64,000 bases of DNA, taken from contig JBFFED010000005.1 of NCBI GenBank assembly GCA_041559015.1, forward strand, positions 2,577 to 66,576. The letters are read 5' to 3'. This document shows positions 12,103 to 36,663 of the stretch, piece by piece. The position numbers and the translations under genes were made by a program. The notes beneath the pieces are model-generated. The model worked only from the letters and a program-made list of their open reading frames with translations, was not told the DNA's origin and made no database searches. The first letter of the stretch is position 1. Every line of letters begins with the position of its first letter. The stretch comes from Thermoplasmata archaeon (GTDB taxonomy: Archaea; Thermoplasmatota; Thermoplasmata; UBA10834).

Positions 12103-12136
12103 AGCTTTATAATCAGCCCTGCCTACCCGATTCCCG

Positions 12137-12364: not shown

Positions 12365-12366
12365 AG

Positions 12367-13810: not shown

Positions 13811-14170
13811 GGCACTCCCGGCTTCCCCGGTCTCCTGAGGACATGAGCGCCCTGGCGCAATGGAGGAACGAGAGAATAGCCCCGTGGATAGGGCACAACC
13901 ATGTAAAACGAATCTCCCCTGGTCTTGACGAACGGAAGACCTGCAACCTGGAGGGGCACGCAGAGACAATCTGTGATGCCTGATGCGACCGGGGCCCGTA
14001 CGGCCGATTGCCCCCTTTCGGACAGCGGAGGGGTGAATTCGACGGGTTCCGGAAACGGCGGTTAATCGAATTTCGAATTTCGTGGCCCATATCTGAAAGA
14101 AAATCTACACACCTCGCACGATGACCTGATGATTGTCGCCACAATCACCACGCTTTTCGAAAGAGCCTAA

Positions 14171-17914: not shown

Positions 17915-18367
17915 ATGGAGGCTTCAACCAATGCACCGGCCCAGGAGGCAGCCTACGAGCCGAAGATAATCGCTTTCTGCTGCAACTGGTGCTCGTACGC
18001 TGGCGCGGACCTCGCGGGCACGACCAGGCTGCAGTATCCCCCGAACGTCAGGATCATCAGGGTCATGTGCTCGGGCAGGGTCGACCCCGCATTCGTGCTC
18101 AAGGCGTTCACCCTGGGTGCGGACGGCGTGATTGTAGCAGGGTGCCACCCGGCGGACTGCCACTACATCAACGGCAACGAGAAGACCGCCATGAGGGGGG
18201 ACTTCCTCAAGTCGTTCCTCGAGGACGCGGGCATCGAGAGCCAGAGGTTCAAGGTAGAATGGATCGCGGGCTCGGAGGGGCGCAAGTTCGCCGAGACCGT
18301 CAAGAAGATGGTGGTGGAGCTGGAGAAGCTGGGGCCGATAGGCCAGGAGGCTGCTGCTGATGGCTGA
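17915..18367 (+). CDS. mvhD: MvhD/FlpD-family iron-sulfur protein
   Basis: 150 aa from ATG 17915. IIAFCCNWCSYAGADLAG...RVMCSGRVDP...VAGCHPADCHY. Confidence 0.9.
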   Translation: MEASTNAPAQEAAYEPKIIAFCCNWCSYAGADLAGTTRLQYPPNVRIIRVMCSGRVDPAFVLKAFTLGADGVIVAGCHPADCHYINGNEKTAMRGDFLKSFLEDAGIESQRFKVEWIAGSEGRKFAETVKKMVVELEKLGPIGQEAAADG

Positions 18368-21300: not shown

Positions 21301-21392
21301 TCAGCCCGAAGCACTTCAAGACCGAGCAGATACTGACGATGATTGAGGCGTGCCTCAAGAATGACCTCGAGCAGGAGGAGGCGAGGACATGA
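18360..21392 (+). CDS. Tandem (double) HdrA-like flavoprotein
   Basis: 1010 aa. Unit 1 (aa 1-~425) has the FAD fingerprint, TFPTNDCSMC and the inserted ferredoxin. A linker follows. Unit 2 has an HdrA N-domain-like Cys module (PRIGVFVCHCGIN), a second FAD fingerprint (LVIGGGLSGMAAALEIA, no TFPTxDC) and a C-terminal 2x[4Fe-4S] (CIACGRCEEICE, CKGCGSCAVACC). Confidence 0.85.
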   Translation: MAEKKVGAVLVVGGGPAGMQAALDLADSGYKVYILETTASIGGTMAQLDKTFPTNDCSMCILSPKLVATGRHENITMLTHAELKKIEGKAGNFKVTLNRHSRYIIEEKCTGCGVCAEHCPVEGVNSFDREMAPAKAIYVPFPQAVPLVYTIDRGLCIGCGVCEKFCEATAIQYSQKPDKEEVLEVGAVILSPGYDVFEAGRKVEYGHGTFPNVLTNIEFERMLSASGPTEGHVIRPSDGDVPKKIAFIQCVGSRDSQTGNTYCSSYCCMAALKQAVIGQEHVPGLQTKIFFMDTRAFGKEFEEYLFRAENEYGVQVLRNTRVPKVQEDPSTNNLMIYYHEGPEIKEEVFDMVVLSAGAQPPASGAAAAKIMGIELNKFGFCETDDLSPVETSAPGIFVCGAFSGPKDIPDSIAQASGAAGKVAALLSEERGKLVAKKEYPPEKDVSGKPPRIGVFVCHCGINIGSVVNVPEVMEYAKSLPNVAYVERNLYTCSGDTQKKIREVIDKHDLNRVVVASCTPRTHEPLFQNTIREAGLNKYLFDMANIRDQCSWVHRLEPEKATQKAKDLVRMAVAKAAKLEPLPQPKIPVTHAALVIGGGLSGMAAALEIAKAGFEVHLVEKDKALGGHLRRIYHTLAGIDPQEAFESLKKEISENKRIKVHLGTEVAEVKGYIGNFESTLKNGEKVKHGAVVVATGGIEYEPKEYEFGKHKKVIRQTELGELLHSKKFKAENVVIVQCVGSRNEEHPNCSRICCSTALANAVKIKNDHPETNVFVLYRDIRTYGFAEEHYNEASRLGVTFLRYDPASPPKVTSKGDDLFVEVDEVFIEQAVRIKADYLVLNAAVHPNPDNQELAKLLKVPLNKEGFFLEAHMKLRPVDFATDGIFLCGLAHSPRLIGESVSQALAAAARVNTVLSKEFIEAEGVVSVVDEDKCIACGRCEEICEYGAPSLVEVRPGVMKSKINEALCKGCGSCAVACCSRAISPKHFKTEQILTMIEACLKNDLEQEEART

Positions 21393-22984
21393 CGGACAAG
21401 AAGTTCGACCCCAACATAGTCGCTTTCTGCTGCAACTGGTGCTCCTATGCCGGGGCGGACCTGGCAGGGGTCTCGAGGATGCAGTACCCCCCGAACGCCA
21501 GGGTCATCAGGGTCATGTACTCAGGCAGAGTCGAGCCATACTTTATACTTAGGGCGCTCGAGCTGGGCGCGGACGGAGTGCTCGTGGCGGGGTGCCACAT
21601 AGGAGACTGCCACTATCTGTCCGGGAACGTCGAGGCCGAGAAGAGGATGAAGATGACCGAGGAGGTCCTCGACACGCTCGGCCTGGGCAGCAAGAGGATG
21701 CGCCTCGAGTGGATATCTGCCTCCGAGGGCCAGAAGTTCGCCCACACCATGAAGGAGTTCACCGAGCAGATCAAGGGCCTAGGGGCAAACCCGCTCCCGA
21801 AGCCACCGGCGAAGAAGGTCGGCGATCCGGCGTCAATCAAGGAGGCAATGAACAGGATCATAGAGGACACCGGTGCCTTCGACTGCGTCGAGTGCGGCAA
21901 GTGCACGACCGTGTGCCCCGTGGCCAAGTACAACCCCGACTTCGCCCCCAGGACGGTCGTCCTGAAGGCGTCGGAGGGGATAGTAGAGAACGTTGCCAGC
22001 AACAGGGACGTCTGGACTTGCGTAACGTGCGAGCAGTGCAACGCGATGTGCCCATACAAGGTCGACTATTCTGGGTTCATAAGGGGCATGAGGGCCGAGG
22101 CGGTCCAGTTCGACAACGCCCCCGCCTGCTCCCAGGGAGGTCTCATCCATGCAATCATGCGCATCCAGGCGAACAGCGACCTCAAGCAGAACAGGTTGGG
22201 GTGGCTCACGCCGGACCTCAAGGTCGCCGACAAGGGGGAGGTATTCTACTTCACCGGGTGCGTCGCCTACTTCGATGCCATCTTCAAGGAGCGCAACCTG
22301 GGGCTGTCTGGCATACCCCAGTCGGTAGTAAAGATAATGAACAAGGCCGGTGTTACTCCGGTCGTCAGCAACGACGAGGTTTGCTGCGGGCACGACCTCA
22401 ACTGGACGGGGGACGAGGAAGGGCTCAAGAAGCTGATGAAGAAGAACGTCGACCTGGTCAAGGCCTCAGGGGCCAAGAAGGTCGTGTTCTCGTGTCCCGA
22501 GTGCCTGCGGACGTTCAACCTCGACTACCAGGACTTCCTGGGTGACTTCGACTTCGAGATGCAGCATGTGTCGGAGTACGTGGACGACCTCATCCAGGAG
22601 GGCAAGCTGAAGTTCAAGAAGGGGTCCAAGAAGGTCACGTTCCAGGACTCCTGCAGGCTGGGGAGGCACATGGGGATCTACGACCCACCCAGGAACGCCC
22701 TCAAGGGGGCGGATGCCCAGGTGGTGGAGATGGAGAACACCAGGGACAAAGCCGTATGCTGCGGTGTCAGCGCCTGGGCGACCTGCGACGAGATATCCAG
22801 GAAGCTCCAGATCGACAGATTCAAGGAGGCAAAGAAGACCGGCGCTGAGTGCCTCGTCACCGGCTGCTACAAGTGCCTCATACACCTCAGCTGCGCGGTC
22901 GAGAACAAGACCCAGGTCCCCAAGGAGCAGATCGACATACCGATCAAGGACCTGAGCGTGTTCATCGCGGAGGCTCTGGAATGA
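21389..22984 (+). CDS. MvhD-HdrC-HdrB fusion protein (MvhD domain + 2x[4Fe-4S] + two CCG domains)
   Basis: 531 aa. N-terminal IVAFCCNWCSYAGADLAG...GCHIGDCHY, then CVECGKCTTVCP / CVTCEQCNAMCP, then FTGC...VCCGHD...SCPEC and DSCR...VCCGVSA...GCYKC. ATGA overlap with the upstream gene. Confidence 0.85.
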   Translation: MTDKKFDPNIVAFCCNWCSYAGADLAGVSRMQYPPNARVIRVMYSGRVEPYFILRALELGADGVLVAGCHIGDCHYLSGNVEAEKRMKMTEEVLDTLGLGSKRMRLEWISASEGQKFAHTMKEFTEQIKGLGANPLPKPPAKKVGDPASIKEAMNRIIEDTGAFDCVECGKCTTVCPVAKYNPDFAPRTVVLKASEGIVENVASNRDVWTCVTCEQCNAMCPYKVDYSGFIRGMRAEAVQFDNAPACSQGGLIHAIMRIQANSDLKQNRLGWLTPDLKVADKGEVFYFTGCVAYFDAIFKERNLGLSGIPQSVVKIMNKAGVTPVVSNDEVCCGHDLNWTGDEEGLKKLMKKNVDLVKASGAKKVVFSCPECLRTFNLDYQDFLGDFDFEMQHVSEYVDDLIQEGKLKFKKGSKKVTFQDSCRLGRHMGIYDPPRNALKGADAQVVEMENTRDKAVCCGVSAWATCDEISRKLQIDRFKEAKKTGAECLVTGCYKCLIHLSCAVENKTQVPKEQIDIPIKDLSVFIAEALE

Positions 22985-23244
22985 ACGAAGAAGCATTTGG
23001 GGCCATGATTCAAAGACGAAACTTGCAGATTCCTTGCAGCGATATTCACGATTCGAGTTCATTTGAGGGCGGATTGTGCCTCACTCCGAAGGTATTCGCA
23101 GGAGGGACAGGATGAGGCTAGTGGGGCAGTCAACGAAACACATAAGACAGAGGATGAAATACGGCAAGAAGACAGCGGATTGCGCAACTACAGTGCCCGG
23201 GGGGGCGGAGAATACACACGCAGGATCATGACGGAGGTCTTTGA

Positions 23245-25947
23245 ATGGAGAAATCAGTGATGGTGATTGGTGGTGGAATTGCTGGCATCCAGGCCGCCTT
23301 GGACCTGGCCGAGAAGGATATCAAGGTGAGCCTAGTGGAGAAGTCTCCAAGCATCGGCGGGAGAATGGCCCAGTTGGACAAGACATTCCCGACGAACGAC
23401 TGTTCGATCTGCATACTGGCGCCCAAGATGGCGGACTGCTACAACCATCCCAACATCGATGTGCTGACCTACTCTGAAGTTGAGGAGGTCAGTGGGAAAG
23501 CTGGCGATTTCAAGGTGAAGGTCCTGAGGCGGTCAAGATTCGTCGATGAAGAGAAGTGCACTGGCTGTGGAGACTGTTTCAAGGTGTGCCCTGTTGCGCT
23601 CCCGAACGAGTTCGACATGGAGATGAGGGAGCGAAGGGCGATCTTCATGCCCTTCCTGCAATCAGTTCCGCGCGTGGCCGTCATAGACCGACAGGGACAG
23701 GCGCCATGCTCGAACGAGTGCCCCGCGGGACTCAGCGCCCAAGGATATGTCGCGCTGATACGCGCCGAGAAATTCAAGGAAGCCCTGGACCTGATAAGAA
23801 GGACTGTGCCGCTCCCATCTGTGTGCGGTCGCATATGTCACCATCCATGCGAGGAAGGCTGCAACAGAAAGGATGTCGACCAGCCAGTCGCAATCGCCGC
23901 GTTGAAATCATTCGTCGCTGACCATGTTCGCGAGCAAGGCGAAGACAAACCAACGCCCCCTGAGACGAAGCGCAAGGAGAAGGTCGCAGTGGTGGGAGCA
24001 GGGCCTGCGGGTCTTGCGGCGGCCTATCGCCTCGCCCTAAGAGGTTTCAACGTCAAGATACTTGAAGCCACATCCAAGCCTGGCGGCATGCTGTGGTGGG
24101 GGATTCCAGACTACAGGCTTCCGAAGGAGATACTCACCGCCGAAGTGGAGTACCTTCTCAGTCACGGCATCGAAGTGGAGTACGGAAAGACCGTGGGCAA
24201 GGACGTCACCCTGGAGCAGCTGCAGAAGGAATACGATGCTGTCTTCCTCGCAATAGGAGCGCACAGGAGCCTGAAACTTGGCATCCCGGGGGAGGACTTG
24301 AACGGAGTTATGCATGGGGTCGATTTCCTACACAAGCTTGTTGCCAAGGAGAAGGTCACGATAGGCAAGAAGGTCGCTGTGATTGGAGGAGGAAACGCCG
24401 CAATGGATGCAGCCAGAACAGCCCTCCGCTTGGGTTCCGAAGTCACTGTGCTGTACAGAAGAACCAGGAACGAGATGCCTGCCATCGCTTCCGAGATCGA
24501 AGGCGCGGAAGAGGAGGGGATCAAGTTCGAGTTTCTGGTGGCGCCTGTTCGCATTGTTGGCCAGGGAGGCAAGATCTCCGGAATCGAGTGCCAGAAGATG
24601 AAGCTGGGAGAACCTGACAAATCGGGAAGGGCCAGGCCTGTTCCAATCGAGGGCTCGGAGTTCACAATTGAGGTAGACACAGTCATCCCTGCGGTAAGCC
24701 AGGAGCCAGAGATTGAGAAGCTGGGCGCGAAGTCCCTTACAGCGACGAAATGGAAGACCATTGAGGTCAACCCCGGCAACCTCAGCACTAATGTCAAGGG
24801 TGTCTTCGCAGGGGGAGACGCTGTCACTGGACCAGCCTCGGCAGTCGAAGCGTTCGCTGCGGGAAACAAAGCCGCAATCTACATAGAGAGATTCCTGGAC
24901 GGCAAGAGCATAGAGCCTGATCCTGAGGAGAAGGACGAACACATTGTCACTCTGGAGGACATCAAGGCAAGGATGAAGGGGGATATCACTAAGACCGAGC
25001 GTGTGCAGAGACAGAAGCTCGCACTCGAGAAACGCAGAACCACCTTCGGCGAGGTCGAGAAGATCCTCACGAAGGAAGAAGCCCTCAAGGAGGCATCTCG
25101 ATGCGTGAGCTGTGGGCCATGTTCTCGATGCGAGGCGTGTGTCCCTGTCTGCGGTCCCAAGTGCATTGACTACAACATGAAGGATCAGGTCCTGACACTC
25201 AACCCTGCTGCTATCATCGTCGCGACTGGGTTTGACATATGGGATCCGACTTCGTCGACAGAATACGGATACCGAAGGTACCCGAACGTGTTCACGGCAA
25301 TGGAGTACGAGCGGATGATAAATGCCGCGGGACCTACCGGAGGACACATAGTGAGGCGTTCCGATGGCGAGCATCCGAAGAAGATGGCTTTCATCCAGTG
25401 CGTAGGCTCGAGAAATCCGCAGGTGGGGCATCCATACTGCTGCGGCGTGTGCTGCATGCACTCCACCAAAGAGGCCATGCTGGCTAGGGAACACTACGAG
25501 GACGTCAACTCGACGATCTTCTACAAGGACCTCAGAGCGTGCGCGAAGGGCTTCTTCGAGTACGTCGAGAGGGCGAAGAACGATTATGGCGTGAAGTTCG
25601 TGAACTCGGATGCGACCGTGCAGGAAAATCCCGACACGCACAATCCAATCGTAGTCTTCGATATCGGGGGGAAGCAGCAATCCGAGGAGTTCGACGCTGT
25701 GATTCTCGCCACGACGCTGATACCCAGAAAGGAGACAATCGAACTGGCGAAGATACTTGGCTTGAAGCTCGATGAGTTCGGGTTCCTGGAGTCCGCAGAC
25801 AGGATCTTGGAACACGGGACGACGCAGGTTCCCGGGGTATTCTTGGCCGGATACTGCGCCGGACCTGCAGATATCCCCGAATCTGTTGCCCAGGGCTCGA
25901 ACGCGGCTGCCAAAGCGGTCGAAGTGCTAGTATTGACAGGAGCGTGA
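23245..25947 (+). CDS. HdrA-like flavoprotein (unit-1 type) with an inserted GltD/NfnB-like NAD(P)H-binding module
   Basis: 900 aa. HdrA start (VIGGGIAGIQAALDLA, TFPTNDCSICIL, CTGCGDCFKVCP). Then aa ~150-615 resemble glutamate synthase small subunit (CGRICHHPCEEGC, VAVVGAGPAGLAAAYRLA, VAVIGGGNAAMDAART, FAGGDAV). Then it returns to HdrA (KMAFIQCVGSRN...CCGVCCM...GVFLAGYCAGPADIPES). Confidence 0.85.
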   Translation: MEKSVMVIGGGIAGIQAALDLAEKDIKVSLVEKSPSIGGRMAQLDKTFPTNDCSICILAPKMADCYNHPNIDVLTYSEVEEVSGKAGDFKVKVLRRSRFVDEEKCTGCGDCFKVCPVALPNEFDMEMRERRAIFMPFLQSVPRVAVIDRQGQAPCSNECPAGLSAQGYVALIRAEKFKEALDLIRRTVPLPSVCGRICHHPCEEGCNRKDVDQPVAIAALKSFVADHVREQGEDKPTPPETKRKEKVAVVGAGPAGLAAAYRLALRGFNVKILEATSKPGGMLWWGIPDYRLPKEILTAEVEYLLSHGIEVEYGKTVGKDVTLEQLQKEYDAVFLAIGAHRSLKLGIPGEDLNGVMHGVDFLHKLVAKEKVTIGKKVAVIGGGNAAMDAARTALRLGSEVTVLYRRTRNEMPAIASEIEGAEEEGIKFEFLVAPVRIVGQGGKISGIECQKMKLGEPDKSGRARPVPIEGSEFTIEVDTVIPAVSQEPEIEKLGAKSLTATKWKTIEVNPGNLSTNVKGVFAGGDAVTGPASAVEAFAAGNKAAIYIERFLDGKSIEPDPEEKDEHIVTLEDIKARMKGDITKTERVQRQKLALEKRRTTFGEVEKILTKEEALKEASRCVSCGPCSRCEACVPVCGPKCIDYNMKDQVLTLNPAAIIVATGFDIWDPTSSTEYGYRRYPNVFTAMEYERMINAAGPTGGHIVRRSDGEHPKKMAFIQCVGSRNPQVGHPYCCGVCCMHSTKEAMLAREHYEDVNSTIFYKDLRACAKGFFEYVERAKNDYGVKFVNSDATVQENPDTHNPIVVFDIGGKQQSEEFDAVILATTLIPRKETIELAKILGLKLDEFGFLESADRILEHGTTQVPGVFLAGYCAGPADIPESVAQGSNAAAKAVEVLVLTGA

Positions 25948-25953
25948 TGATGA

Positions 25954-27825
25954 ATGGCAGAGACCAACAAGGACGTCAAGACGGAGGAGCCGAGAGTCGG
26001 CGTCTTCATTTGCCACTGTGGATCGAACATCGGGGGATTCGTCGATGTCAAGGCGGTGACGGAGTATGCCAAGACACTTCCTGGGGTAGCATACGCCACC
26101 GACAACCTCTACACATGCGCCGAAGATGGCCTCGCCTCCATCAGAGCAGGGATCAAGGAACACAACCTGAACAGGGTAGTGGTTTCGAGTTGCACTCCTC
26201 GAACCCATGCTCCGCTGTTCCAGGGAACCTGCGAGTCGGCAGGTCTGAACAAGTACCTGTTCACGTTCGTGAACATCAGAGAGCATTGCTCCTGGGTGCA
26301 CATGAAGGAACGAGACAAGGCGACCAGGAAGGCAAAAGACCTCGTCCGGATGGGAGTCGCAAGGGCGAGGCTGCTGCAACCTCAGATTGAGACGAAGGTC
26401 GAAGTCACGCCCGTCGGACTCGTGATAGGAGGGGGCGTTTCTGGCATGACCGCGGCCCTGTCGCTGGCCGACATGGGGTTCACCGTGCATCTCGTGGAGA
26501 GCGAGGCGAATCTCGGCGGACTTGTCAAGGACCTCCACAGCCTTACGCTGACAAGCAAGAGCGCTTCCGACACGATCAGTCCACTGATTGAGAAGGTCAA
26601 GGCTAGCAAGAACATCGTGCTTCATCTGAGTTCCCAGGTCAAGTCGGTCGAGGGGTTCATAGGCAACTACGACATCGTCATCGCGAGCAAGGACGGCAAG
26701 GAGAGCGAGTCGAAGGTCGGCACGATAATCGTCGCCACCGGGGCTCAGGCCCTGATTCCGGAAGGGCTGTTCGGCTACAAGGAATGCCCGAATGTCGTGA
26801 CGCTTACCGAGTTCGAAGAGCTGGCGAGGAAGAGGGCACTTCCGAAACCCCTGAAGAACATCGCCTTCATACAATGTGTCGGCGCACGAGGACAGAAGGT
26901 TACGTACTGCTCAAGGATCTGCTGTAATGTGGCCATAAAGAGCGCGGTCAATCTCACGGACAATGTCGACAACATCCTTGGGGTGGCTGAAGAGAAGGGC
27001 GAAGTTGTCGAGGCGGCGCCCGCAGAGGAGAAGAAGGTGGCGCCGGAAGAAGGTACGGAACGCAGACGGAGAAGGCGCGGCCGAGACGAAGAGGGACCTT
27101 CCTCGGAGGCGAGGGCTGCCCCGTCCGGAAGAGTGGACATCACTGTATTCAACCGGGACGTCATGGCCTACGGGATCGAGCACGAGCTCGACTACAACAA
27201 GGCCAGGGAGAAGAGAGTCAAGTTCGTCAGGTATCTCCCCGAGAATGCGCCAAAGGTCTTTATGGATGGCGACAAGCTTACAGTCGGGTACTTCCATGAG
27301 ACTCTGAAGATCGAGAGGACCATGCAGGCCGACATGGTTGTCCTGGCAACACCGCTGGTCTCTCGGCCTGATGCCCCGCGGCTCTCGCAGATGCTGAAGG
27401 TGCCCATCGGACAAGAAGGGTTCTTCCAAGAGGCACATGTGAAGCTCAGACCTGTCGATTTCGCGACGGACGGCATCTACGTGTGCGGAACTTGCAGGGG
27501 CCCGGCAGACATACCAGAGTCCGTGTATCAGGCAGCTGCTGCAGCATCAAGGGCCGCCATACCAATGGCGAAGGGATACGTCCAGGCAGAGGCCCTGACG
27601 CCCGCAGTGGATGAAACGAAATGCACGGGATGCGGAACATGCATCGAAGTCTGCCCTTACGGCGCGCTGAGAAAGAACGACAAGGGCATATGCGAAGTAA
27701 TAGTGGCAGCCTGCAAGGGCTGCGGCTGTTGTGGCGCGACCTGTCCGGAAGCGGCCATAGCGATGACGCACTATTCGGATGCGCAGCTGCTTGCTGAGGC
27801 CAAGGCAGCTCTGGAGGAGGTGTGA
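25954..27825 (+). CDS. HdrA-like protein (unit-2 type): N-domain Cys module, degenerate FAD domain, C-terminal ferredoxin
   Basis: 623 aa. PRVGVFICHCGSN, LVIGGGVSGMTAALSLA, IAFIQCVGARG...CSRICC, CTGCGTCIEVCP / CKGCGCCGATCP. Same frame as the upstream gene, separated only by three TGA codons. Confidence 0.85.
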   Translation: MAETNKDVKTEEPRVGVFICHCGSNIGGFVDVKAVTEYAKTLPGVAYATDNLYTCAEDGLASIRAGIKEHNLNRVVVSSCTPRTHAPLFQGTCESAGLNKYLFTFVNIREHCSWVHMKERDKATRKAKDLVRMGVARARLLQPQIETKVEVTPVGLVIGGGVSGMTAALSLADMGFTVHLVESEANLGGLVKDLHSLTLTSKSASDTISPLIEKVKASKNIVLHLSSQVKSVEGFIGNYDIVIASKDGKESESKVGTIIVATGAQALIPEGLFGYKECPNVVTLTEFEELARKRALPKPLKNIAFIQCVGARGQKVTYCSRICCNVAIKSAVNLTDNVDNILGVAEEKGEVVEAAPAEEKKVAPEEGTERRRRRRGRDEEGPSSEARAAPSGRVDITVFNRDVMAYGIEHELDYNKAREKRVKFVRYLPENAPKVFMDGDKLTVGYFHETLKIERTMQADMVVLATPLVSRPDAPRLSQMLKVPIGQEGFFQEAHVKLRPVDFATDGIYVCGTCRGPADIPESVYQAAAAASRAAIPMAKGYVQAEALTPAVDETKCTGCGTCIEVCPYGALRKNDKGICEVIVAACKGCGCCGATCPEAAIAMTHYSDAQLLAEAKAALEEV

Positions 27826-27828
27826 GAA

Positions 27829-28650
27829 GTGACCGACAAGCATGCCACACACAGCAGTTCTGACGCTGCCGCGAAGGGCGAATGGGAGCCGAAGGTGATA
27901 GGGTTTCTGTGCAATTGGTGCTCATACGCGGGGGCGGACCTCTGCGGCGTGAGCCGATTCCAGTATCCGACGGACATACGCCTGATCAGGGTCATGTGTT
28001 CCACTCGAATCAGCCCGCACCTTGTGCTGAACCTGTTCGAGGCGGGAGCCGACGGGATCCTCATAGGCGGATGCCACCTGAACGACTGCCATTACATATC
28101 AGGCAACTTCCACACGGAGAAACGCGCAAGACTCATGAACAAGCTGCTGGAAATGACCGGAATAGAGCCGAAGAGACTGAGGCTCGAGTGGGTCTCGGCC
28201 TCCGAGGGTGAGAAGTTCTCCAAGGTCGTCACCGAATTCACCGACACTGTCAAGAAGCTCGGGCCCAGCAAGGTCGGGAAAGATGATCTCCTGAGGGCGA
28301 AGGCGACCGCCGCCGACGAGGCATCTGAGACCTTCAGAATCAAGGCCCTTGTTGGAAAGGAGTTGAATCTGGAGACAAAGGGCAATGTATACGGTGACAC
28401 ACGGAGCAAGGATGACCTCGAGAAGATCGTGGACAAGTCGGCTGAGGAAGAGTTCGAGAGAAGTCTCATAATTGAGCTCTCGAGGCAGCAGCCAAGATCC
28501 GTAAAAGATCTCAGCAAGATAATGGGCGTTCCAGCAGATCAGGTCCTGCGGCATATCGTTGTGCTGAGGCAGAGGAACCTGATCTCGATGGACCACCCGG
28601 AAGGATTCACGCCAACATACAGGGCAATTGAGATAGGAGGTGAGCAGTGA
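27829..28650 (+). CDS. MvhD-domain protein with a C-terminal winged-helix-like extension
   Basis: 273 aa, GTG start 3 nt after the upstream stop. VIGFLCNWCSYAGADLCG...GGCHLNDCHY. The last ~120 aa end in an HTH-like segment (RSVKDLSKIMGVPADQVLRHIVVLRQRNLI). Confidence 0.8.
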   Translation: MTDKHATHSSSDAAAKGEWEPKVIGFLCNWCSYAGADLCGVSRFQYPTDIRLIRVMCSTRISPHLVLNLFEAGADGILIGGCHLNDCHYISGNFHTEKRARLMNKLLEMTGIEPKRLRLEWVSASEGEKFSKVVTEFTDTVKKLGPSKVGKDDLLRAKATAADEASETFRIKALVGKELNLETKGNVYGDTRSKDDLEKIVDKSAEEEFERSLIIELSRQQPRSVKDLSKIMGVPADQVLRHIVVLRQRNLISMDHPEGFTPTYRAIEIGGEQ

Positions 28651-31600
28651 TGGCTGCTACGGACACGATAGGCGCGGTTATGGTCGTTGGAGGAGGCATA
28701 TCGGGCATGCAGTCCGCCCTCGATCTGGCAGATTCGGGGTACAAGGTATACCTCATCGAGAAGCAGCCGAGCATCGGTGGCACCATGGCCCAGCTGGACA
28801 AGACTTTCCCCACGAACGACTGCGCGATGTGCATCATGGCGCCCAAGCTCGTTTCCACGGGCAGGCACCACAACATCGAGCTTGTGACGAATGCAGACGT
28901 CGCATCTGTCGAAGGTGAGGCCGGGAACTTCAAGGTGACCGTCAAGCAGAGGGCTTTCAGGGTCGATCCCACCAAGTGTACTGGATGCGGCAGCTGCGCG
29001 CAGAAGTGTCCCATCGAGACCGACGACGAGTACAATGAGGGGACCAAGGTCAGGAAGGCGATATATGTGCGTTATCCACAGGCTGTTCCACTCGTGTATT
29101 CGATCGACCTCGACAAGTGCATAGGCTGCGGGATATGCTCGGAGGAATGCAAGGCCAAGGCCGTCGTCTACGACCAGAAGGAGAAGACCATGGAGATCAG
29201 GGTCGGCTCGATAATCGTCTCTCCTGGCTTCGACGAGTTCAATGCGAGGCTCAAGGGGGAGTACGGTTACGGCGTCTACAAGAACGTCGTATCCAGCATC
29301 GAGTTCGAGAGGATGCTCTCGGCGACAGGTCCGTACTTCGGCACTGTGATGAGACCTTCTGACGGCGACATCCCGGAGAAGATAGCATTCATACAATGCG
29401 TCGGATCAAGGGACGAGCACGTCGGCCACGAGTACTGCTCAAGCGTTTGCTGCATGTACTCCATCAAGGAGGCCGTCATAGCGAAGGAGCATGGAGGGAA
29501 CATCAAGCCAACCATCTTCTTCATGGACATGCGGGCATTCGGGAAGGAGTTCGACGAGTACTACAACCGGGCTCAGAACGAATATGGCATCAGGTTCATC
29601 AGGTCGAGGGCAGCCGGCATCACAGAGGACCCGAAGACGAAGAACCTCAAGGTGAAGTACACCGATGGTGGAGAGCCAAAGGAAGAGGAGTTCGGCCTCG
29701 TCGTGCTTGCTGTGGGTCTCGCACCTCCTGCGGATTCGGAGAGCCTGAGCAAGGCGATGAAGTTCGGGCTGAACGACGACGGTTTCGCTCAGACGAATGT
29801 GTTCTCTCCTCTCGACACCTCGAGGCCTGGGATATTCGTCAGTGGCGCTTTCTCGTCACCCAAGGACATCCCGATGACCGTCGCCGAGGCGTCTGGCGCG
29901 GCGGCGAAAGCGTCGACACAGATCGCGAGCGCGAGGAACACGCTCGTCACCAAGAAGGAGTACCCGGCCGAGATCAGCGTCGAGGGGCAGGAACCCCGGA
30001 TAGGAGTGTTCGTCTGCCACTGCGGCATCAACATAGGAGGCGTCGTGAAGGTACCCGAGGTCATGGAGTACGCCAAGACGCTCCCGAATGTGGTGTACGC
30101 AGAGCAGAATCTGTACACCTGCTCCCAGGACACACAGGAGAAGATCAAGGAGAAGGTGAAGGAGCTCAAGCTGAACAGGGTGATAGTTGCCTCCTGCACG
30201 CCGAGGACGCACGAGCCGTTGTTCCAGAATACCATCAGGGAGGCCGGACTCAACGCCTACCTGTTCGAGATGGCCAATATCAGAGACCAATGCTCGTGGA
30301 TACACATGCACGAGCCCAAGGCCGCCACGAAGAAAGCCAAGGACCTCGTCAGAATGGCGGCAGCTAAAGCAAGGCTTCTGGAACCTCTGGAGAACCTGAC
30401 GCTCAAGGTGAACCAGACTGGGCTGGTTGTCGGAGGAGGTGTGGCGGGGATGATGGCGGCACTTGAGATCGCGAAACAGGGTTTCAAGGTGCACCTGGTC
30501 GAGAGAGAGAAGGAGCTCGGAGGGAACGCGCTCAAGCTGCACTACTTGCCATCTGGAGATGACCCGACCGCGTTCGTGAAGGACCTGGAGAAGCAGGTCA
30601 CATCGAATCCGAACATAACGGTCCACAAGGGCGCGAAGATACTGAGCATCGACGGCTATGTCGGCAATTTCAAGACGAAGCTCGGCGACGGCAAGGAGCT
30701 GGAGCATGGAGTGGTCATCCTCGCGATTGGAGGACTGGAGTACAAGCCCGAGGGCGAGTACCTCTACGGCAAGAACAAGCAGGTGACGACCCTGCTCGAG
30801 TTCAAGGAGCAGCTCCACAAGGGCCACGCCAAGGGCAACGAGTATGTATTCATCCAGTGTGTCGGCTCCAGAGAGGAAGGACATCCCAACTGCTCAAGGG
30901 TATGCTGCACGGGCACGATGACAGCGGCGATAGAGATCAAGAAGCGCGACCCGAAAGCGAAGGTCTTCGTCCTTTACAGGGACATCAGGACCTACGGCTT
31001 CAGAGAGAAGTACTACAAGGAGGCAGCCAGGCTCGGAGTGACCTTCATAAGATTCGACGACGCCGTCAAGCCGAAGGTGGAGGATAAGGGCGGGAAGATC
31101 ACAGTGCATGTGAAGGATGAGGACACTGGCAAGGATGTGGTCCTGAAGCCGGACCACCTCGTACTGGCGACAGGCACCAGGGCACAGCCGGACGCTGGGG
31201 CACTCGCTCCGATGTGCAAGGTGCCCCAGACGAAGGAGGGTTTCTTCCTTGAGGCGCACATGAAACTGCGGCCGGTGGACTTCGCAACCGATGGTATATT
31301 CCTCGCAGGGTTGGCACACGGCCCCAAGTTCATTGACGAGAGCATCTCCCAGGCTCTGGGTGCAGTCGCAAGAGCGGGGACAATCCTGTCCAAGACCGAG
31401 CTGGAGGCTGAGGGGATAGTGGCCAAGATCGACGAAACCTTCTGCGATGGATGCGGGATATGTGTCCCGGTCTGCGAGTACAAGGCGCTCGAGGTCATCC
31501 CTGACAAGAAGGATCCGGAGAAGAAGCTCGTGGAGGTCAATGTAGGGCTCTGCAAGGGCTGCGGCGCGTGTGTGGGCACGTGCCCGTCCGGTGCCCTGAC

Positions 31601-31697
31601 GCAGATGGGCTACAAGGACGAGCAGATATACGCGATGATAGATGCCATGCTTGAAGAGGAGCATCCCGGGCAGGAGGTGAAGCAGAATGAGCACTGA
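28647..31697 (+). CDS. Tandem (double) HdrA-like flavoprotein, paralogue of 18360..21392
   Basis: 1016 aa, collinear with the 1010-aa protein. VVGGGISGMQSALDLA, TFPTNDCAMC, PRIGVFVCHCGIN, LVVGGGVAGMMAALEIA, CDGCGICVPVCE / CKGCGACVGTCP. Confidence 0.85.
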   Translation: MMAATDTIGAVMVVGGGISGMQSALDLADSGYKVYLIEKQPSIGGTMAQLDKTFPTNDCAMCIMAPKLVSTGRHHNIELVTNADVASVEGEAGNFKVTVKQRAFRVDPTKCTGCGSCAQKCPIETDDEYNEGTKVRKAIYVRYPQAVPLVYSIDLDKCIGCGICSEECKAKAVVYDQKEKTMEIRVGSIIVSPGFDEFNARLKGEYGYGVYKNVVSSIEFERMLSATGPYFGTVMRPSDGDIPEKIAFIQCVGSRDEHVGHEYCSSVCCMYSIKEAVIAKEHGGNIKPTIFFMDMRAFGKEFDEYYNRAQNEYGIRFIRSRAAGITEDPKTKNLKVKYTDGGEPKEEEFGLVVLAVGLAPPADSESLSKAMKFGLNDDGFAQTNVFSPLDTSRPGIFVSGAFSSPKDIPMTVAEASGAAAKASTQIASARNTLVTKKEYPAEISVEGQEPRIGVFVCHCGINIGGVVKVPEVMEYAKTLPNVVYAEQNLYTCSQDTQEKIKEKVKELKLNRVIVASCTPRTHEPLFQNTIREAGLNAYLFEMANIRDQCSWIHMHEPKAATKKAKDLVRMAAAKARLLEPLENLTLKVNQTGLVVGGGVAGMMAALEIAKQGFKVHLVEREKELGGNALKLHYLPSGDDPTAFVKDLEKQVTSNPNITVHKGAKILSIDGYVGNFKTKLGDGKELEHGVVILAIGGLEYKPEGEYLYGKNKQVTTLLEFKEQLHKGHAKGNEYVFIQCVGSREEGHPNCSRVCCTGTMTAAIEIKKRDPKAKVFVLYRDIRTYGFREKYYKEAARLGVTFIRFDDAVKPKVEDKGGKITVHVKDEDTGKDVVLKPDHLVLATGTRAQPDAGALAPMCKVPQTKEGFFLEAHMKLRPVDFATDGIFLAGLAHGPKFIDESISQALGAVARAGTILSKTELEAEGIVAKIDETFCDGCGICVPVCEYKALEVIPDKKDPEKKLVEVNVGLCKGCGACVGTCPSGALTQMGYKDEQIYAMIDAMLEEEHPGQEVKQNEH

Positions 31698-32145
31698 GAT
31701 CGCACAGACGTCCACCCCGGATGAGGAGGGGGGCAAGTTCGATCCGAAATTGCTGGTGTTCTGCTGCAACTGGTGCTCTTACGCGGGGGCAGACCTCGCG
31801 GGAGTCAGCAGGCTGCAGATGCCCCCGTACTTCAGGGTAATCAGGGTAATGTGCTCCGCCAGAGTGGACCCTGAATTCATTCTGAGGGCGTTCCAGAAGG
31901 GGGTGGATGGGGTCCTGGTGGCGGGCTGCCATCCAGCGGACTGCCACTACATCGGAGGCAACTACAGGACTCGCAGGAGGATTGCCCTGCTGAAGATGCT
32001 CATCCAGCAGTTCGGATTCGACCCCGACAGACTGAAGCTGGAGTGGGTGTCAGCAGGCGAAGGCGAGAAGTTCCAGAAGACCATCGTCGAGTTCACCAAT
32101 ACTGTCAAGGAACTAGGGGCCTCGCCCTTCCGAGGTGGTGTATGA
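31687..32145 (+). CDS. mvhD: MvhD/FlpD-family iron-sulfur protein
   Basis: 152 aa. LLVFCCNWCSYAGADLAG...VAGCHPADCHY. Overlaps the upstream stop by 11 nt. Confidence 0.9.
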   Translation: MSTEIAQTSTPDEEGGKFDPKLLVFCCNWCSYAGADLAGVSRLQMPPYFRVIRVMCSARVDPEFILRAFQKGVDGVLVAGCHPADCHYIGGNYRTRRRIALLKMLIQQFGFDPDRLKLEWVSAGEGEKFQKTIVEFTNTVKELGASPFRGGV

Positions 32146-32518
32146 TATGTCCTTGAGGGAGGCCAGGGTGCGAGCGGCCCTTAGGACACTCGAGGGCGAG
32201 AGAGTCAGGTGGCTCCTGGGCAAGAAGGGGTCGCTGACATCGACCGGCAATGTCTTCGGCGAGGTGATCACCGAGCCGAGGTATGACTTCATAGTCCAGA
32301 AGGCTGCCGCAATCGAGCTCGAGAGGAACCTACTGCTCCAGGAGATGGAGGAAGGGTCGAGGACCGTCCACGAGCTGCACAGAGCCACGGGCATCGCGAA
32401 GCCCGAGATTGTGAGGCACGTGATCGCGCTCAAGAGGTGGAGGCTGGTAGAGCAGGTGGGCACCAAGGGCCAGTCGCCACAGTACATGGCCGCACCGAGG
32501 AAGAAAGAGGTGAACTGA
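32135..32518 (+). CDS. Small winged-helix-like protein homologous to the C-terminal extension of the 27829..28650 protein
   Basis: 127 aa (GTG 32135/32138 or ATG 32147). TGNVFGE... and RTVHELHRATGIAKPEIVRHVIALKRWRLV align by eye with KGNVYGD... and RSVKDLSKIMGVPADQVLRHIVVLRQRNLI. Overlaps the mvhD stop and ends 2 nt before mvhG. Confidence 0.65.
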   Translation: MVYDMSLREARVRAALRTLEGERVRWLLGKKGSLTSTGNVFGEVITEPRYDFIVQKAAAIELERNLLLQEMEEGSRTVHELHRATGIAKPEIVRHVIALKRWRLVEQVGTKGQSPQYMAAPRKKEVN

Positions 32519-32520
32519 AC

Positions 32521-33537
32521 ATGGCAGATAAGATCAAGATAGCACAATACTGGGGAGCTGGTTGCGGAGGCTGCGACGTCGCTCTCCTGGACATAGATGC
32601 GAAGATACTGGACGTGCACGCGATCGCGGAGGTCGTCTTCTGGCCGATAGGCTTCGACGGGAAGATCAAGGACATCGAGGCGATGCCAGACAAGTCGATT
32701 ACGGTCAGCTTCTACAACGGGGCGATAAGGAATAGCGAGAACGAACACATAGCCAAGCTCTTGAGGCAGAAGTCGGTCATCATGATCTCATTCGGGTCGT
32801 GCGCGTGCTTCGGGGGCACGCCCGGACTCGCGAACGTGACGAACAGGAAAGAGGTGTTCGATACAGTCTACAGGCAGACGCAATCCACGGACAACCCGAA
32901 TGGCGTGATGCCGCAGACCCACATCAAGGTGAAAGAAGGCGAGCTCGATCTGCCGGAGTTCTACGACACCGTCAAGACGCTGGACGAGGTCGTGGATGTC
33001 GACTACTTCATGCCAGGGTGCCCGCCAACAGTCAACCTGATTGCCATGGCGGTGGATGCCGTGGCGCAGCACGTCACGAAGGGCGCGCCACTCCCACCCA
33101 AGGGGACCATCATAGCCTCGGACAAGACCCTGTGCGACGAGTGCAACAGAGAGAGGGTGGAGAAGAACCGGAGGATCGAGAGGATCTACCAAGCTTATGA
33201 GATCACGCCAGACCCGAAGAAGTGTCTCCTAGACCAGGGGATCATATGCATCGGGCCTGCCACGAGAGCTGGGTGCGGCGCGATGTGCCCGAACGCACAG
33301 ATGCCCTGCAGGGGCTGCATGGGTCCGACCAGGGCAGTCATGGAGCAGGGTGCGAGCATGCTGAGCGCCGTCTCCTCGCTGCTGAACATCACGGATTCGG
33401 AGTCAAAGCTAAGTGAGGAGCAGATAATGGAACTGATGATGCAGGTCAAGGACCCGCTAGGCACGTTCTATGCATTCACGCTGCCGAAGTCCGCGCTCAA
33501 GCGGGTTGTGACCGAGAAGAAGAAGAGGAAGGGGTGA
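32521..33537 (+). CDS. mvhG: [NiFe] hydrogenase small subunit, F420-non-reducing (Mvh) type
   Basis: From ATG 32521: WGAGCGGCDVALLD, FGSCACFGG, MPGCPP, and a distal cluster region CDECNRE...GPATRAGCGAMCPNAQMPCRGCMGP. Confidence 0.9.
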   Translation: MADKIKIAQYWGAGCGGCDVALLDIDAKILDVHAIAEVVFWPIGFDGKIKDIEAMPDKSITVSFYNGAIRNSENEHIAKLLRQKSVIMISFGSCACFGGTPGLANVTNRKEVFDTVYRQTQSTDNPNGVMPQTHIKVKEGELDLPEFYDTVKTLDEVVDVDYFMPGCPPTVNLIAMAVDAVAQHVTKGAPLPPKGTIIASDKTLCDECNRERVEKNRRIERIYQAYEITPDPKKCLLDQGIICIGPATRAGCGAMCPNAQMPCRGCMGPTRAVMEQGASMLSAVSSLLNITDSESKLSEEQIMELMMQVKDPLGTFYAFTLPKSALKRVVTEKKKRKG

Positions 33538-33543: not shown

Positions 33544-35058
33544 ATGGCCGGACCTATCATCAACGACACACCGACTAAGACGAAGGAAAAGAAGATCACT
33601 ATCGACCCCATCACGAGGCTTGAGGGGCACGGTAAAATCGTGATATTCCTGAACGACCAGGGGAACGTCGAGAACGCGTACCTCCAGGTGCCGGAGCTGA
33701 GAGGCTTCGAGAGGTTCTGCATCGGAAGGCACGTGATGGAGCTGCCGGTGCTCACGAACAGGCTATGCGGAGTCTGCCCCGCGGCACACCATATCGCCTC
33801 GATGAAGACCCTGGACGCGGTGTTCAGCGCCACACCGACAGAGACGGCAAAGAAGATCCGCGAGCTCTTCTACATGGGCCAGTACGTCCACAGCCACATA
33901 GCGCACTTCTACGCGCTCGCGGCACCGGACTTCGTGCTGGGACCATCGGCCCCTGCGAACAAGCGCAACGTGCTGGGGGTTGTCGACGCCGTCGGAGTGC
34001 CCATAGGCGCCGAGGTCATAAAGCACAGGTCTTACGGTCAGAAGGTGCAGGAAATCACAGGCGGAAGGGCGACGCACCCAGTGTTCGGCCTCCCTGGAGG
34101 AGTGTCCAAACAGATTTCAGAGGAGGAGAGGGCCCAGATAGAGGAGATGGCGAAATCGTGCGTCGAGTTCGGCAAGTTCACCATCAAGTTGTTCCACGAC
34201 CTCGTCCTCGGGAACAAGGACTACATGTCCCTCGTCCTCAACAAAGACGCGTACTACCTCGACACGTACTACATGGGCATGGTCGACAAGGACAACAAGA
34301 CGAACTTCTACGATGGGGACATAAGAGTCGTCGACCAGGAGGGCAAGGAGGTCGAGAGGTTCAAGCCGGACCAGTACCTGGACGTCATCGCCGAGCACGT
34401 CGAGCCCTGGACCTACATGAAAATGCCCTTTCTCAAGAAGGTCGGCTGGAAGGGGTTCACCACCGGGAAGCAGAGCGGCATATACCGAGTCGGCCCGTTG
34501 GGCAGAATCAACGTGTGCGGTGGCTACACCACTCCTCTCGCACAGAAGGAGTATGAGTTCCTCGCGAAGACCGTCAAGGACCTGGGCGTCACGGGGCCCG
34601 TGCATTTCACACTTGCGTACCATTGGGCGCGGGCAATCGAGCTACAGTACGCCGCCGAGAGGATGCTCGAGCTGGCGAGTGACAAGAAGCTCACGAGCGA
34701 CGACATCAGGGGACCCATTGGGCAGCCCAAAGAGGGCGTCGGCATCTGCGAGGCGCCGAGGGGTACGCTGATACACCACTACGCCTCTGATAAGGACGGC
34801 CTCTGCACCAAGATCAACATGATAGTGGCCTCGACGAACAACTATGCGGCGAGCAACACGAGCGTCAAGCAGGCTGCAACCGCCCTCATCAAGAACTGGG
34901 AGGTCTCGCCCGGACTGCTGAACAAGGTGGAGATGGCCTTCAGGTGCTACGACCCATGCCATTCGTGCGGGACGCACTCGCTGAACGGCGGGCCAGCGCT
35001 GGAGGTCACGATAAAGCGCAGAGACGGTTCTGTCCTGACCAAGCTGAGAAACTTCTGA
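33544..35058 (+). CDS. mvhA: [NiFe] hydrogenase large subunit, Mvh type
   Basis: 504 aa. N-terminal ligand motif RLCGVCPAAH. C-terminal DPCHSCGTH followed by a 26-aa extension, the expected protease substrate. Confidence 0.92.
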   Translation: MAGPIINDTPTKTKEKKITIDPITRLEGHGKIVIFLNDQGNVENAYLQVPELRGFERFCIGRHVMELPVLTNRLCGVCPAAHHIASMKTLDAVFSATPTETAKKIRELFYMGQYVHSHIAHFYALAAPDFVLGPSAPANKRNVLGVVDAVGVPIGAEVIKHRSYGQKVQEITGGRATHPVFGLPGGVSKQISEEERAQIEEMAKSCVEFGKFTIKLFHDLVLGNKDYMSLVLNKDAYYLDTYYMGMVDKDNKTNFYDGDIRVVDQEGKEVERFKPDQYLDVIAEHVEPWTYMKMPFLKKVGWKGFTTGKQSGIYRVGPLGRINVCGGYTTPLAQKEYEFLAKTVKDLGVTGPVHFTLAYHWARAIELQYAAERMLELASDKKLTSDDIRGPIGQPKEGVGICEAPRGTLIHHYASDKDGLCTKINMIVASTNNYAASNTSVKQAATALIKNWEVSPGLLNKVEMAFRCYDPCHSCGTHSLNGGPALEVTIKRRDGSVLTKLRNF

Positions 35059-35143
35059 ACACTTTCGGTGAGGAGGGGGGACCTCCCCCTCATGACGCCT
35101 CTTCTCCTCTAGTCCTAACACAGGCATCTGGTTGAGAGAAACG

Positions 35144-35599
35144 ATGAAGAAAACACTGGTCCTCGGAGTCGGGAACCCGATTCTGTCCGACGATGGAGTT
35201 GGCATACACGTCGCCAGGATACTCAAGGGAAGGAGGCTCCCGGGAGTCGTCGTCGAAGAGCTACCTGCAAGCGGGCTGGAGCTACTCGACATGGTGCTCG
35301 ATTTCGACAAGGTCGTGATTGTCGATGCCATCAAGACGAAGGGAGGTGTGCCTGGGGAGCACTACATGCTCGAGGAGGATGACTTCGAGAAGTCGGTCCA
35401 TGGCGCATCTCCTCATGGAATCAACATCGCTACGGCCATCGGGCTCGGCAGGAAGATAGTGCCTGAAAGGATGCCGAAAGAGGTCATCTTCATAGCCGTC
35501 GAGGCGGAAGACCTGCACAACCTCAGTGAGAAGCTCACGGACAGTGTCGAGGAGGCGCTGCCGAGAATTGTGAACAGGGTGGTTGAAGAGGTCTCGTGA
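35144..35599 (+). CDS. Hydrogenase maturation endopeptidase
   Basis: From ATG 35144: MKKTLVLGVGNPILSDDGVGIHV..., VIVDAI, HGASPHG. Directly downstream of mvhA. Confidence 0.85.
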   Translation: MKKTLVLGVGNPILSDDGVGIHVARILKGRRLPGVVVEELPASGLELLDMVLDFDKVVIVDAIKTKGGVPGEHYMLEEDDFEKSVHGASPHGINIATAIGLGRKIVPERMPKEVIFIAVEAEDLHNLSEKLTDSVEEALPRIVNRVVEEVS

Positions 35600-35607: not shown

Positions 35608-36663
35608 TCAGCAAATCCTCGGCACTGGATCTCCGACAGGTGGCTCGACAACTCTGTTGCCGCCGGTGTGTGTCTCCATCACCACACCTCTGATGTCCCC
35701 GACCGCCTCACCGATGATCCTGGCTTTCTTGCCTTCTGGGAAGGCCCTTATCGCCTTGAGCACTTCCCCCGCCAACGGGGATGCTACCGCGAGGATAACC
35801 TTGCCCTCGTTGCCTATCTCAAGCGGGTCGATCCCCAGCATCTCGCAGGCCGCAATCACCGGCTCATCCATCGGGATGTCCTCCTCACGAATCCTGAGGC
35901 CAACGTGTGACTTGTCCGCCCACTCGTTCAGAAGGTTCGAGAGGCCTCCGCGAGTCGGATCCTTCATTGAGCAAACACCCCCAGCCTTCAGAGCGGCAGA
36001 TATCATGTGATTCAGCGGAGCTGCGTCGCTCTCGACCGACGTCTCGAAGCCATAGCCCTCCCTGGATGACAGGATTGCCACTCCGTGGTTGCCTATAGGT
36101 CCTGATGCGATAAGGACATCCCCAGCTGCAACCGCGGAATCGTTCGGCCAGTTCCACTTGAAAGACCTGTGCTCCCTTATCCTGGCGATGTTGCTGTCAA
36201 GGTACTCGGAGCGCCTTCCTATGCCGCTCGTGTTGATGAATATACCGTCGGCCGCCTGCTTCTCGACCACCTTGGTATCCCCTGTCACCACCCTAACGCC
36301 CGCCTTCTTGGAGGTCGCGTTGATGCTCCGCATAATCTTGTGCAGGTCGTCGCTGGAGAACCCCTCCTGGATGATCATGGCGCATGAGAGCGCGGTGGGC
36401 GACGCACCCATCGCGGCGAGGTCGTTGACGGTCCCCGCCACACAAAGCGTGCCTATGTCCCCGCCTGGGAAGAATATCGGCTTCACCGTGTACGAATCCG
36501 TGGTGAACGCGATGCCGTCGACGATGGCAGCGTCGTCGAGCAACGAGAGTGGTATCTCCCCGAAGTCGTGATCCAGCTCCTTGAGGACGAACTCGCGGAT
36601 GAACTCCTGCATGCGTTCGCCCCCGGCCCCTTGGGCCATGGATATCTTAGCCATCAGCAGCAC
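35608..36663 (-). CDS. hypE: Hydrogenase maturation protein HypE
   Basis: 351 aa, PurM-like fold signatures, MAQGAGGE near the N-terminus and the diagnostic C-terminal PRIC. Convergent with the protease gene across an 8-bp gap. Confidence 0.92.
   Translation of the reverse strand: MLLMAKISMAQGAGGERMQEFIREFVLKELDHDFGEIPLSLLDDAAIVDGIAFTTDSYTVKPIFFPGGDIGTLCVAGTVNDLAAMGASPTALSCAMIIQEGFSSDDLHKIMRSINATSKKAGVRVVTGDTKVVEKQAADGIFINTSGIGRRSEYLDSNIARIREHRSFKWNWPNDSAVAAGDVLIASGPIGNHGVAILSSREGYGFETSVESDAAPLNHMISAALKAGGVCSMKDPTRGGLSNLLNEWADKSHVGLRIREEDIPMDEPVIAACEMLGIDPLEIGNEGKVILAVASPLAGEVLKAIRAFPEGKKARIIGEAVGDIRGVVMETHTGGNRVVEPPVGDPVPRIC

Follow-up and report, generated by a model that had tools for sequence, protein, structure and literature searches.

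The 64,000-nucleotide window analyzed here (contig JBFFED010000005.1, positions 2,577 to 66,576 of the forward strand) originates from a Thermoplasmata-type archaeon; close homologues of its proteins are named Thermoplasmata or "Euryarchaeota RBG_13" archaeon. It contains one large hdr/mvh cluster on the + strand (14.3-35.6 kb), the gene order of which is the same in the complete genome CP070732.1 (locus L001). Within this cluster, a module of about 115 residues, consisting of a strongly conserved helical linker and an ArsR-like winged helix (WH), is present in two copies, once fused to the C-terminus of an MvhD domain and once as a separate gene behind a stand-alone mvhD. The genes and elements concerned are the following, with secondary structure taken from the AlphaFold2 (AF2) model:

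27829-28650, + strand: MvhD-WH fusion gene, 273 aa, with MvhD/FlpD at residues 23-145 (Pfam PF02662, E=4.6e-51) and the WH module at residues ~153-270
28285-28407, + strand: linker half of the fused module, two helices (residues 153-183) and then the GNVYGD loop (28381-28398)
28408-28626, + strand: winged helix-turn-helix (wHTH) core of the fused module, with helices at residues 194-220, 225-232 and 236-248 and a beta-hairpin at 252-266
28647-31697, + strand: type II double HdrA, 1016 aa, two thioredoxin-reductase-like units (NCBIfam HdrA2 in three stretches, 1010 bits), located between the two WH-carrying genes
31687-32145, + strand: stand-alone mvhD, 152 aa (Pfam FlpD, E=5.3e-55)
32132-32137, + strand: Shine-Dalgarno-like GAGGTG, read from the sequence, ending 9 nt before the ATG at 32147
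32147-32518, + strand: stand-alone WH gene, 123 aa, with GNVFGE at 32246-32263 and the wHTH core at 32273-32491

Two homologous copies of one module

The C-terminal extension of the fusion protein (28279-28647, 123 aa) and the open reading frame (ORF) behind mvhD, taken in a 127-aa version (32135-32515), align in BLASTP with 30% identity and 58% positives over 114 aa without gaps (E=2e-19), which bears out an alignment made by eye in the initial annotation. This similarity is far above chance, and the two segments are homologous along the whole module, beyond the helix-turn-helix (HTH) alone. The length of 127 aa, on the other hand, stems from a misread start: that version begins at GTG 32135, inside the ribosome-binding site. 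The true start of the small WH gene is almost certainly ATG 32147, yielding 123 aa, since most of its 144 close homologues, including all of the closest ones, have exactly this length and GAGGTG is found 9 nt upstream. Consequently, the mvhD stop and the WH start do not overlap, as had been assumed, but abut (TGA 32143-32145, one nucleotide, ATG 32147). In the window as in L001, no more than 1-2 nt separate the WH gene from its neighbors.

Both copies are real coding sequences under purifying selection. Compared to the CP070732.1 orthologues, the ratio of nonsynonymous to synonymous substitution rates (dN/dS) is ~0.13 for the ORF and ~0.12 for the fused extension. A read-through or frameshift product of mvhD was considered and rejected: the ORF is not in the mvhD frame, its orthologue in CP070732.1 has another offset, and its dN/dS is low. 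The frame difference and the changed offset identify mvhD and the WH gene as a genuine gene pair.

An HTH and wing at the end of both copies, as proposed initially, is recovered in the AF2 models and by Foldseek, which groups the wHTH part of the models with ArsR/SmtB winged helices (E ~1e-3 for the stand-alone protein). The model of the fused 273-aa protein (26-sequence alignment) has a predicted local distance difference test score (pLDDT) of 89.2 and a predicted template modeling score of 0.85. In the stand-alone model, residues 43-115 are confident (pLDDT 85-96) and form a long helix, the HTH and a beta-hairpin wing, while the first 40 residues are poorly modeled (pLDDT 52-70). The linker block reaches a pLDDT of 88-97 with MvhD attached versus 52-66 in the stand-alone model. 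As the linker is confidently modeled only in the presence of MvhD, the predictions suggest that it packs on this domain.

Family, architectures and gene neighborhoods

A profile of both forms was searched against 1.84 billion representatives. The family comprises 290 clusters (50% identity) at E<=1e-3 and 143 at E<=1e-10, nearly all of which are matched end to end, and is distributed over Thermoplasmata, Bathyarchaeia, Archaeoglobi, Thorarchaeota, Thermodesulfobacteriota, WOR-3 and Chloroflexi. In the family as a whole, the best-conserved parts are the linker (R-L-R-W-L-V-G-K ... G-N-V-Y-G-E), the signature of which makes up the most conserved columns, a few buried core positions and the wing (G-x-x-P-x-Y). 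The exposed positions of the recognition helix are variable across the family, and the wHTH core has a median isoelectric point (pI) of ~5.5.

Architectures were counted in the best 148 of the 290 representatives, labelled with an MvhD profile built from the window. Half of these (n = 74) carry an MvhD C-terminus directly N-terminal of the module, many of them being N-truncated gene calls. The other half (n = 74) have no MvhD, and 42 of these look complete with a length of <=150 aa. Other fusions occur as well, namely HdrA-MvhD-WH (P0136), MvhD-WH-HdrA/GltD (P0263), WH-WH-2x[4Fe-4S] (P0147) and, in Archaeoglobi, ferredoxin (Fd)-MvhD-WH. The archaeoglobal loci (L026-L029, L033-L035 and L037; ~9.4-10.3 kb where the flank is complete) encode Fd-(divergent MvhD)-WH; next in order come a type II HdrA, MvhD, two Fe-S proteins (one Fer4_22), an AsrB/PyrK-like FAD/NAD protein, HdrC and HdrB. 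The trio of two Fe-S proteins and the AsrB-like protein is also located behind the Desulfosudaceae clusters L021 and L024. In Thorarchaeota (L030, L031; 8831-11113), a 760-aa protein with the module in tandem (two copies) and a C-terminal 2x[4Fe-4S] ferredoxin is encoded directly after an HdrA-MvhD fusion and before an acyl-CoA dehydrogenase. In two bacterial subfamilies of MvhD-WH, an in-frame TGA (selenocysteine, Sec) truncates the gene calls, at two different conserved cysteine positions. One Sec site, GUHPGECHY, occurs in six deltaproteobacterial loci (L010, L016, L021, L022, L024 and L025; at ~10.0 kb or 3.4 kb in each), and the other, CTWU at residue 19, in L040 (7.9-8.7 kb).

In the window, the remainder of the cluster comprises the following features:

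14319-16415, + strand: HdrA
16992-17909, + strand: HdrB
~17.9 kb-18367, + strand: MvhD
18360-21392, + strand: double HdrA, 1010 aa, type II
21389-22984, + strand: MvhD-HdrC-HdrB triple fusion
22985-23244: intergenic gap, 260 bp
23245-25947, + strand: type III HdrA, 900 aa, with an inserted GltD-type NAD(P)H module (NCBIfam and Pfam matches to GltD-type and HdrA models)
25954-27825, + strand: HdrA-like protein, 623 aa, with a C-terminal 2x[4Fe-4S] domain (NCBIfam HdrA2, 496 bits), directly upstream of the MvhD-WH fusion gene
32521-33537, + strand: mvhG/vhuG-like [NiFe]-hydrogenase small subunit (NCBIfam VhuG, E=3.5e-67), beginning 2 nt past the end of the WH gene
33544-35058, + strand: mvhA/vhuA-like [NiFe]-hydrogenase large subunit (NCBIfam VhuA, E=4.6e-121)
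35132-35599, + strand: hydrogenase maturation protease

The cluster (14319-35599) thus contains four MvhD domains and five HdrA-type genes. All four MvhD domains match FlpD at E<1e-50. The MvhD cysteine pattern CNWC ... C ... GCHxxDCHY is present, with Cys28, Cys82 and Cys87 invariant or nearly so (alignment A4). Genes for [NiFe]-hydrogenase maturation are found on both sides of the cluster (9895-13810 and, on the - strand, 35608-36663): hypF, hypA and hypD upstream, and a HypE-like gene of the AIR-synthase family downstream on the opposite strand.

Gene neighborhoods were collected for 47 loci from at least 10 phylum-level lineages, 33 of them from a genome scan and the rest from exact-protein look-ups. 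The scan was limited to the pattern GNVYGEK[LI] (the 40-sequence alignment was too diverse), and its loci belong to Bathyarchaeia, Thermoplasmata, Methanomassiliicoccales, Archaeoglobi, Thorarchaeota, Syntrophobacterales, Thermodesulfobacteriota, Desulfosudaceae, Desulfobacterales, WOR-3, Chloroflexi and Syntrophorhabdus. A plasmid collection gave no match. In most of the 47 loci, a double HdrA of ~1000 aa adjoins the WH gene; the latter usually comes immediately before this HdrA, with a plain mvhD behind it in many cases. On the upstream side of the WH gene, many loci have a split HdrA, in some of them accompanied by a GltD module, and an equivalent of the 623-aa HdrA-like protein precedes MvhD-WH in L001, L002, L008, L014 and L015. 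Where a stand-alone WH gene adjoins mvhD, it comes directly after mvhD in all four cases examined (the window including its CP070732.1 orthologue L001, L042, L043 and L044). The order in L042 is hdrA-mvhD-WH-mvhG, as in the window, while L043 and L044 show mvhD-WH-hdrA. Together with the 74 fused representatives, this confirms, over a large sample, the fusion-versus-neighbor pattern from which the initial annotation had started. The same annotation regarded MvhD as the partner with which the domain travels. Fusion and adjacency agree with this, but in a third subfamily the stand-alone WH gene is located between hdrB and a 1538-aa fusion of GltD and type II HdrA, with no adjoining mvhD. Given this subfamily and the adjacency in most loci, the constant partner of the module is the type II double HdrA more than MvhD itself.

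The input modules encoded near the WH gene vary: an MvhAG hydrogenase (window, L015, L038), a GltD-type NAD(P)H module (window, L004, L040, L048, L049) or NuoE/NuoF with formate dehydrogenase (L040). In one bacterial subfamily (L045, 4890-13686), a stand-alone module is encoded amid response-regulator-GcvH and GcvH-HdrC fusions, HdrB, the 1538-aa GltD-type II HdrA fusion, DsrE and TusA, a gene set that hints at a sulfur- or lipoate-linked Hdr system. The deltaproteobacterial WH loci were considered as possible bam clusters, and this was rejected: their neighbors (MetF, Fhs, FolD, GcvH-like and AsrB-like) characterize them as Wood-Ljungdahl-linked Hdr clusters.

A probable docking adaptor weighed against other roles

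In our view, the module is probably a structural docking adaptor that joins an electron-input module to type II (BamE-like, fused-dimer) HdrA bifurcating complexes, and not a DNA-binding regulator. Its two N-terminal helices (RLRWLVGK...GNVYGE) would pack onto MvhD, HdrA or both, and the winged helix at the C-terminus (wing G-x-x-P-x-Y) would clamp the neighboring electron-input module, the Fe-S chain of which would thereby be aligned with HdrA and MvhD. This proposed clamp is modeled on a contact reported in class II benzoyl-CoA reductase. There, the MvhD homologue BamF is described as exceeding other MvhD proteins in length by more than 100 aa, and its winged helix-turn-helix interfaces with BamI in the cryo-electron microscopy (cryo-EM) structure (April 2026 preprint; 10.64898/2026.04.10.717634). 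In the window, the fused copy would link the 1016-aa HdrA to the NAD(P)H-type module, made up of type III HdrA/GltD and the 623-aa HdrA-like protein, and the split copy (MvhD with the 123-aa protein) would link the same HdrA to the MvhAG hydrogenase encoded downstream. The 900-aa type III HdrA is a candidate input partner because a natural MvhD-WH-HdrA/GltD fusion exists elsewhere (P0263). The latter fusion (GltD-type) and that with ferredoxin (P0147) lend indirect support to a contact of the winged helix with a subunit of the input module.

Several observations weigh against this interpretation. The type II HdrA paralogue of 1010 aa (18360-21392) has an MvhD domain on either side but no WH. 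Some loci with MvhAG and type II HdrA carry a single WH copy (L015, L038), which makes the partner of each copy uncertain; the physical contacts, like these partners, are inferred, the structure predictions being of single chains. None of the loci retrieved is a true bamBCDEFGHI cluster, and BamF of Geobacter metallireducens (BamBCDEFGHI), which resembles the window fusion in having an MvhD domain followed by an extension of >100 aa with a wHTH (~120 aa in the window), could be compared by its description only. In addition, there are possible signals of DNA binding. The stand-alone ORF scores 24.3 bits for Pfam HTH_5, marginally above the cut-off of 22, the helix pattern VLRHIVALRRRGLV resembles ArsR recognition helices, and the stand-alone protein of the window is basic (pI 10.1), which would suit DNA binding. 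These signals count for a redox-linked transcription regulator, in which the winged helix would bind operator DNA of hdr/mvh and the [2Fe-2S] MvhD would make this binding redox- or assembly-dependent, comparable to the enzyme-plus-repressor proteins PutA and BirA. The same holds for the HTH_IclR match of the stand-alone ORF (23.3 bits, above the cut-off), the moderate conservation of basic residues where the recognition helix ends (positions 96-98), the public annotation of the stand-alone genes as ArsR family and the best PDB matches in sequence and fold, which are ArsR/SmtB repressors. Indeed, the last ~70 residues of the module share the fold of SmtB (1SMT), CzrA (1R1U) and HlyU (3JTH), with weak profile matches (E=1e-5 to 1e-6).

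Nonetheless, we consider such a regulator unlikely. Both WH proteins stop 7-9 residues past the wing with no helix following the beta-hairpin in the AF2 models, and hence the alpha5 dimerization helix of ArsR proteins is absent. Neither copy in the window contains a metal or redox sensor site (alpha3N Cys motif, alpha5 His/Asp/Glu site) or, in fact, any cysteine. Unlike ArsR/SmtB repressors, moreover, the module has an additional conserved N-terminal linker of 45 residues and is fused to or embedded in redox enzymes, in some cases between redox domains of a single polypeptide. The fused copy remains below every HTH threshold (HTH_5 16.2 bits; HTH_20 and HTH_5 only sub-threshold), and both copies reach 20 bits for NCBIfam HTH_metalloreg, the cut-off of which is 55. 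Conservation resides in the linker and wing whereas the exposed face of the recognition helix varies, and the acidic median pI of the family core contrasts with the basic window protein. The WH gene occupies a mid-operon position rather than a divergent or leading one. Finally, the equivalent element of BamF makes a protein contact. Of the two possibilities raised by the initial annotation, an accessory structural subunit or a redox-linked regulator, the evidence thus favors the former and weakens the latter.

The regions upstream of the hdr genes bear on the same question. No inverted repeat or conserved palindromic operator was found in the promoter region at 22985-23244, which counts against regulation by the module but is not decisive. 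A block CAACGAAACACATAAGA(C/A)AGA upstream of the type III hdrA is kept in the window (~23128-23150) and in CP070732.1 (L001, ~985-1010), and is probably a promoter with TATA- or B recognition element-like sequence. Upstream of the first hdrA (14319), there is a palindrome CGAATTTCGAATTTCG at 14067-14082 and a 10-nt inverted repeat TGATGATTGT/ACAATCACCA at 14127-14150; these could be operator sites for some regulator. If the module has retained ArsR-like DNA binding, it may function as a switch in the manner of PutA: MvhD-WH or WH left free and unassembled would repress the operon.

Two further roles are less likely than that of a regulator. As an assembly or maturation factor, the module would attach to MvhD or type II HdrA only for the time of cofactor insertion or complex assembly and be absent from the mature enzyme. 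Its tight linkage to mvhD and hdrA would fit, as would the presence of hypF, hypA, hypD and the maturation protease in the same window. Yet, covalent fusion to the client in half of the family, or embedding between redox domains, is not expected for a transient chaperone, and the BamF winged helix is retained in the mature, active complex (10.64898/2026.04.10.717634), making this role quite improbable. Hardly any weight can be given to a ligand or carrier domain, in which the winged helix would bind what Hdr reduces, be it a small molecule, a coenzyme or, as a protein substrate, a DsrC/TusE-like acceptor. No physiological substrate of HdrBC is known for non-methanogens, which leaves room for such a role, and genes for TusA, DsrE and GcvH-like proteins are found near some family members. 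However, TusA and DsrE neighbors were seen in one subfamily only, and no pocket-like conservation was detected. A DsrC-like disulfide or persulfide carrier is excluded for the module itself, since neither window copy has a cysteine.

Extending the docking adaptor to the whole family, we tentatively propose, as a possibility somewhat short of even odds, that this unnamed and widespread family is a specific docking element of type II HdrA supercomplexes. It would determine which input module (hydrogenase, GltD-type NAD(P)H or NuoEF/formate dehydrogenase) is wired to which side of the asymmetric HdrA, and it would exist in Thermoplasmata as a separate, extra subunit of Mvh-Hdr type. This matters as uncultured anaerobes such as Bathyarchaeia, Thermoplasmata, Asgard archaea and sulfate reducers commonly have type II and III HdrA proteins, the modular assembly of which is unknown. 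An adaptor module would serve as a marker to predict which gene products belong to one supercomplex, and the 123-aa protein or the wing motif would provide a handle for pull-downs, AlphaFold-Multimer and cryo-EM. Public annotations also deserve correction: stand-alone genes are called "ArsR family transcriptional regulator", and many fused genes are listed as fragments of 160-230 aa, some of them through truncation at a Sec codon.

Comparison with known Mvh, Hdr and Bam systems

The N-terminal 145 residues of the fusion protein superpose on canonical MvhD/VhuD (PDB 5ODC, 8RVU, 7BKB) with a template modeling (TM) score of ~0.9 (target-normalized), a root-mean-square deviation of 1.4 A and 49-57% identity. 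In Foldseek, the corresponding chains (5odc_D, TM 0.92; 8rvu_F; 7bkb_F) match this N-terminal half only. The solved MvhD chains measure 129-138 aa and lack the module, and the solved Mvh/Hdr complexes contain no separate winged-helix subunit. Likewise, PDB searches with a narrow (A1) and a broad (A2) family profile retrieved generic ArsR-type winged helices only and no Hdr, Mvh or Bam chain with the module, in PDB copies that do not include the BamF-complex entries 29QY, 29RC and 29RN. The initial statement that no such subunit is part of the characterized Mvh-Hdr complex therefore holds for the solved PDB complexes, but does not hold in general, as the BamF winged helix contacts BamI. For the same reason, the domain is not wholly uncharacterized: a structural counterpart has been described in BamF, although the family itself is unnamed.

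A 2025 survey defines type II HdrA by two thioredoxin reductase domains and type III by a GltD insertion, neither having been studied biochemically (PMC12054007). The HdrA proteins of 1010 and 1016 aa in the window fit type II and the 900-aa protein fits type III. The survey mentions neither a winged-helix module nor its link with type II HdrA (zero occurrences of "helix"). In our literature search, the preprint on class II benzoyl-CoA reductase was the only text found in which an MvhD homologue is connected with a winged helix. The family-wide picture, the link with type II HdrA and the split stand-alone form appear to be new, as we did not find them in the literature searched.

The closest parallel is the Bam complex, in which, as in the window cluster, an HdrA bifurcating core is combined with a module for electron input. 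BamE is described as a fused dimer of HdrA and BamF as carrying Sec19 (10.64898/2026.04.10.717634). The ~1000-aa BamE resembles the 1016-aa HdrA of the window, the putative partnership of which with the module is seen in gene neighborhood. The family relative in L040 shares with BamF a Sec at residue 19 (CTWU), and its locus has a D-E-F-(x)-(x)-G-H-like gene order beside NuoE/NuoF-type genes. No Geobacter match occurred among the 33 loci of the pattern scan, and the Sec19-type query P0185 returned no named Geobacter protein; P0322 and P0335 are surrounded by HdrA-like, MvhD-WH and GltD modules and not by bam clusters. The window differs from the Bam system in that it is archaeal, has an MvhAG hydrogenase and a GltD-type module, and lacks both the BamGHI (HydBC-like) module and the BamBC tungsten enzyme. 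Unlike BamF with Sec19, the window proteins have Cys, and one of the two copies is split off as a 123-aa gene, a form that is not described for Bam. By analogy, we infer that the family module may be homologous to the BamF extension. The docking by a winged helix seen in benzoyl-CoA reductase may be a feature of HdrA-type bifurcating complexes in general, and not of that enzyme alone.

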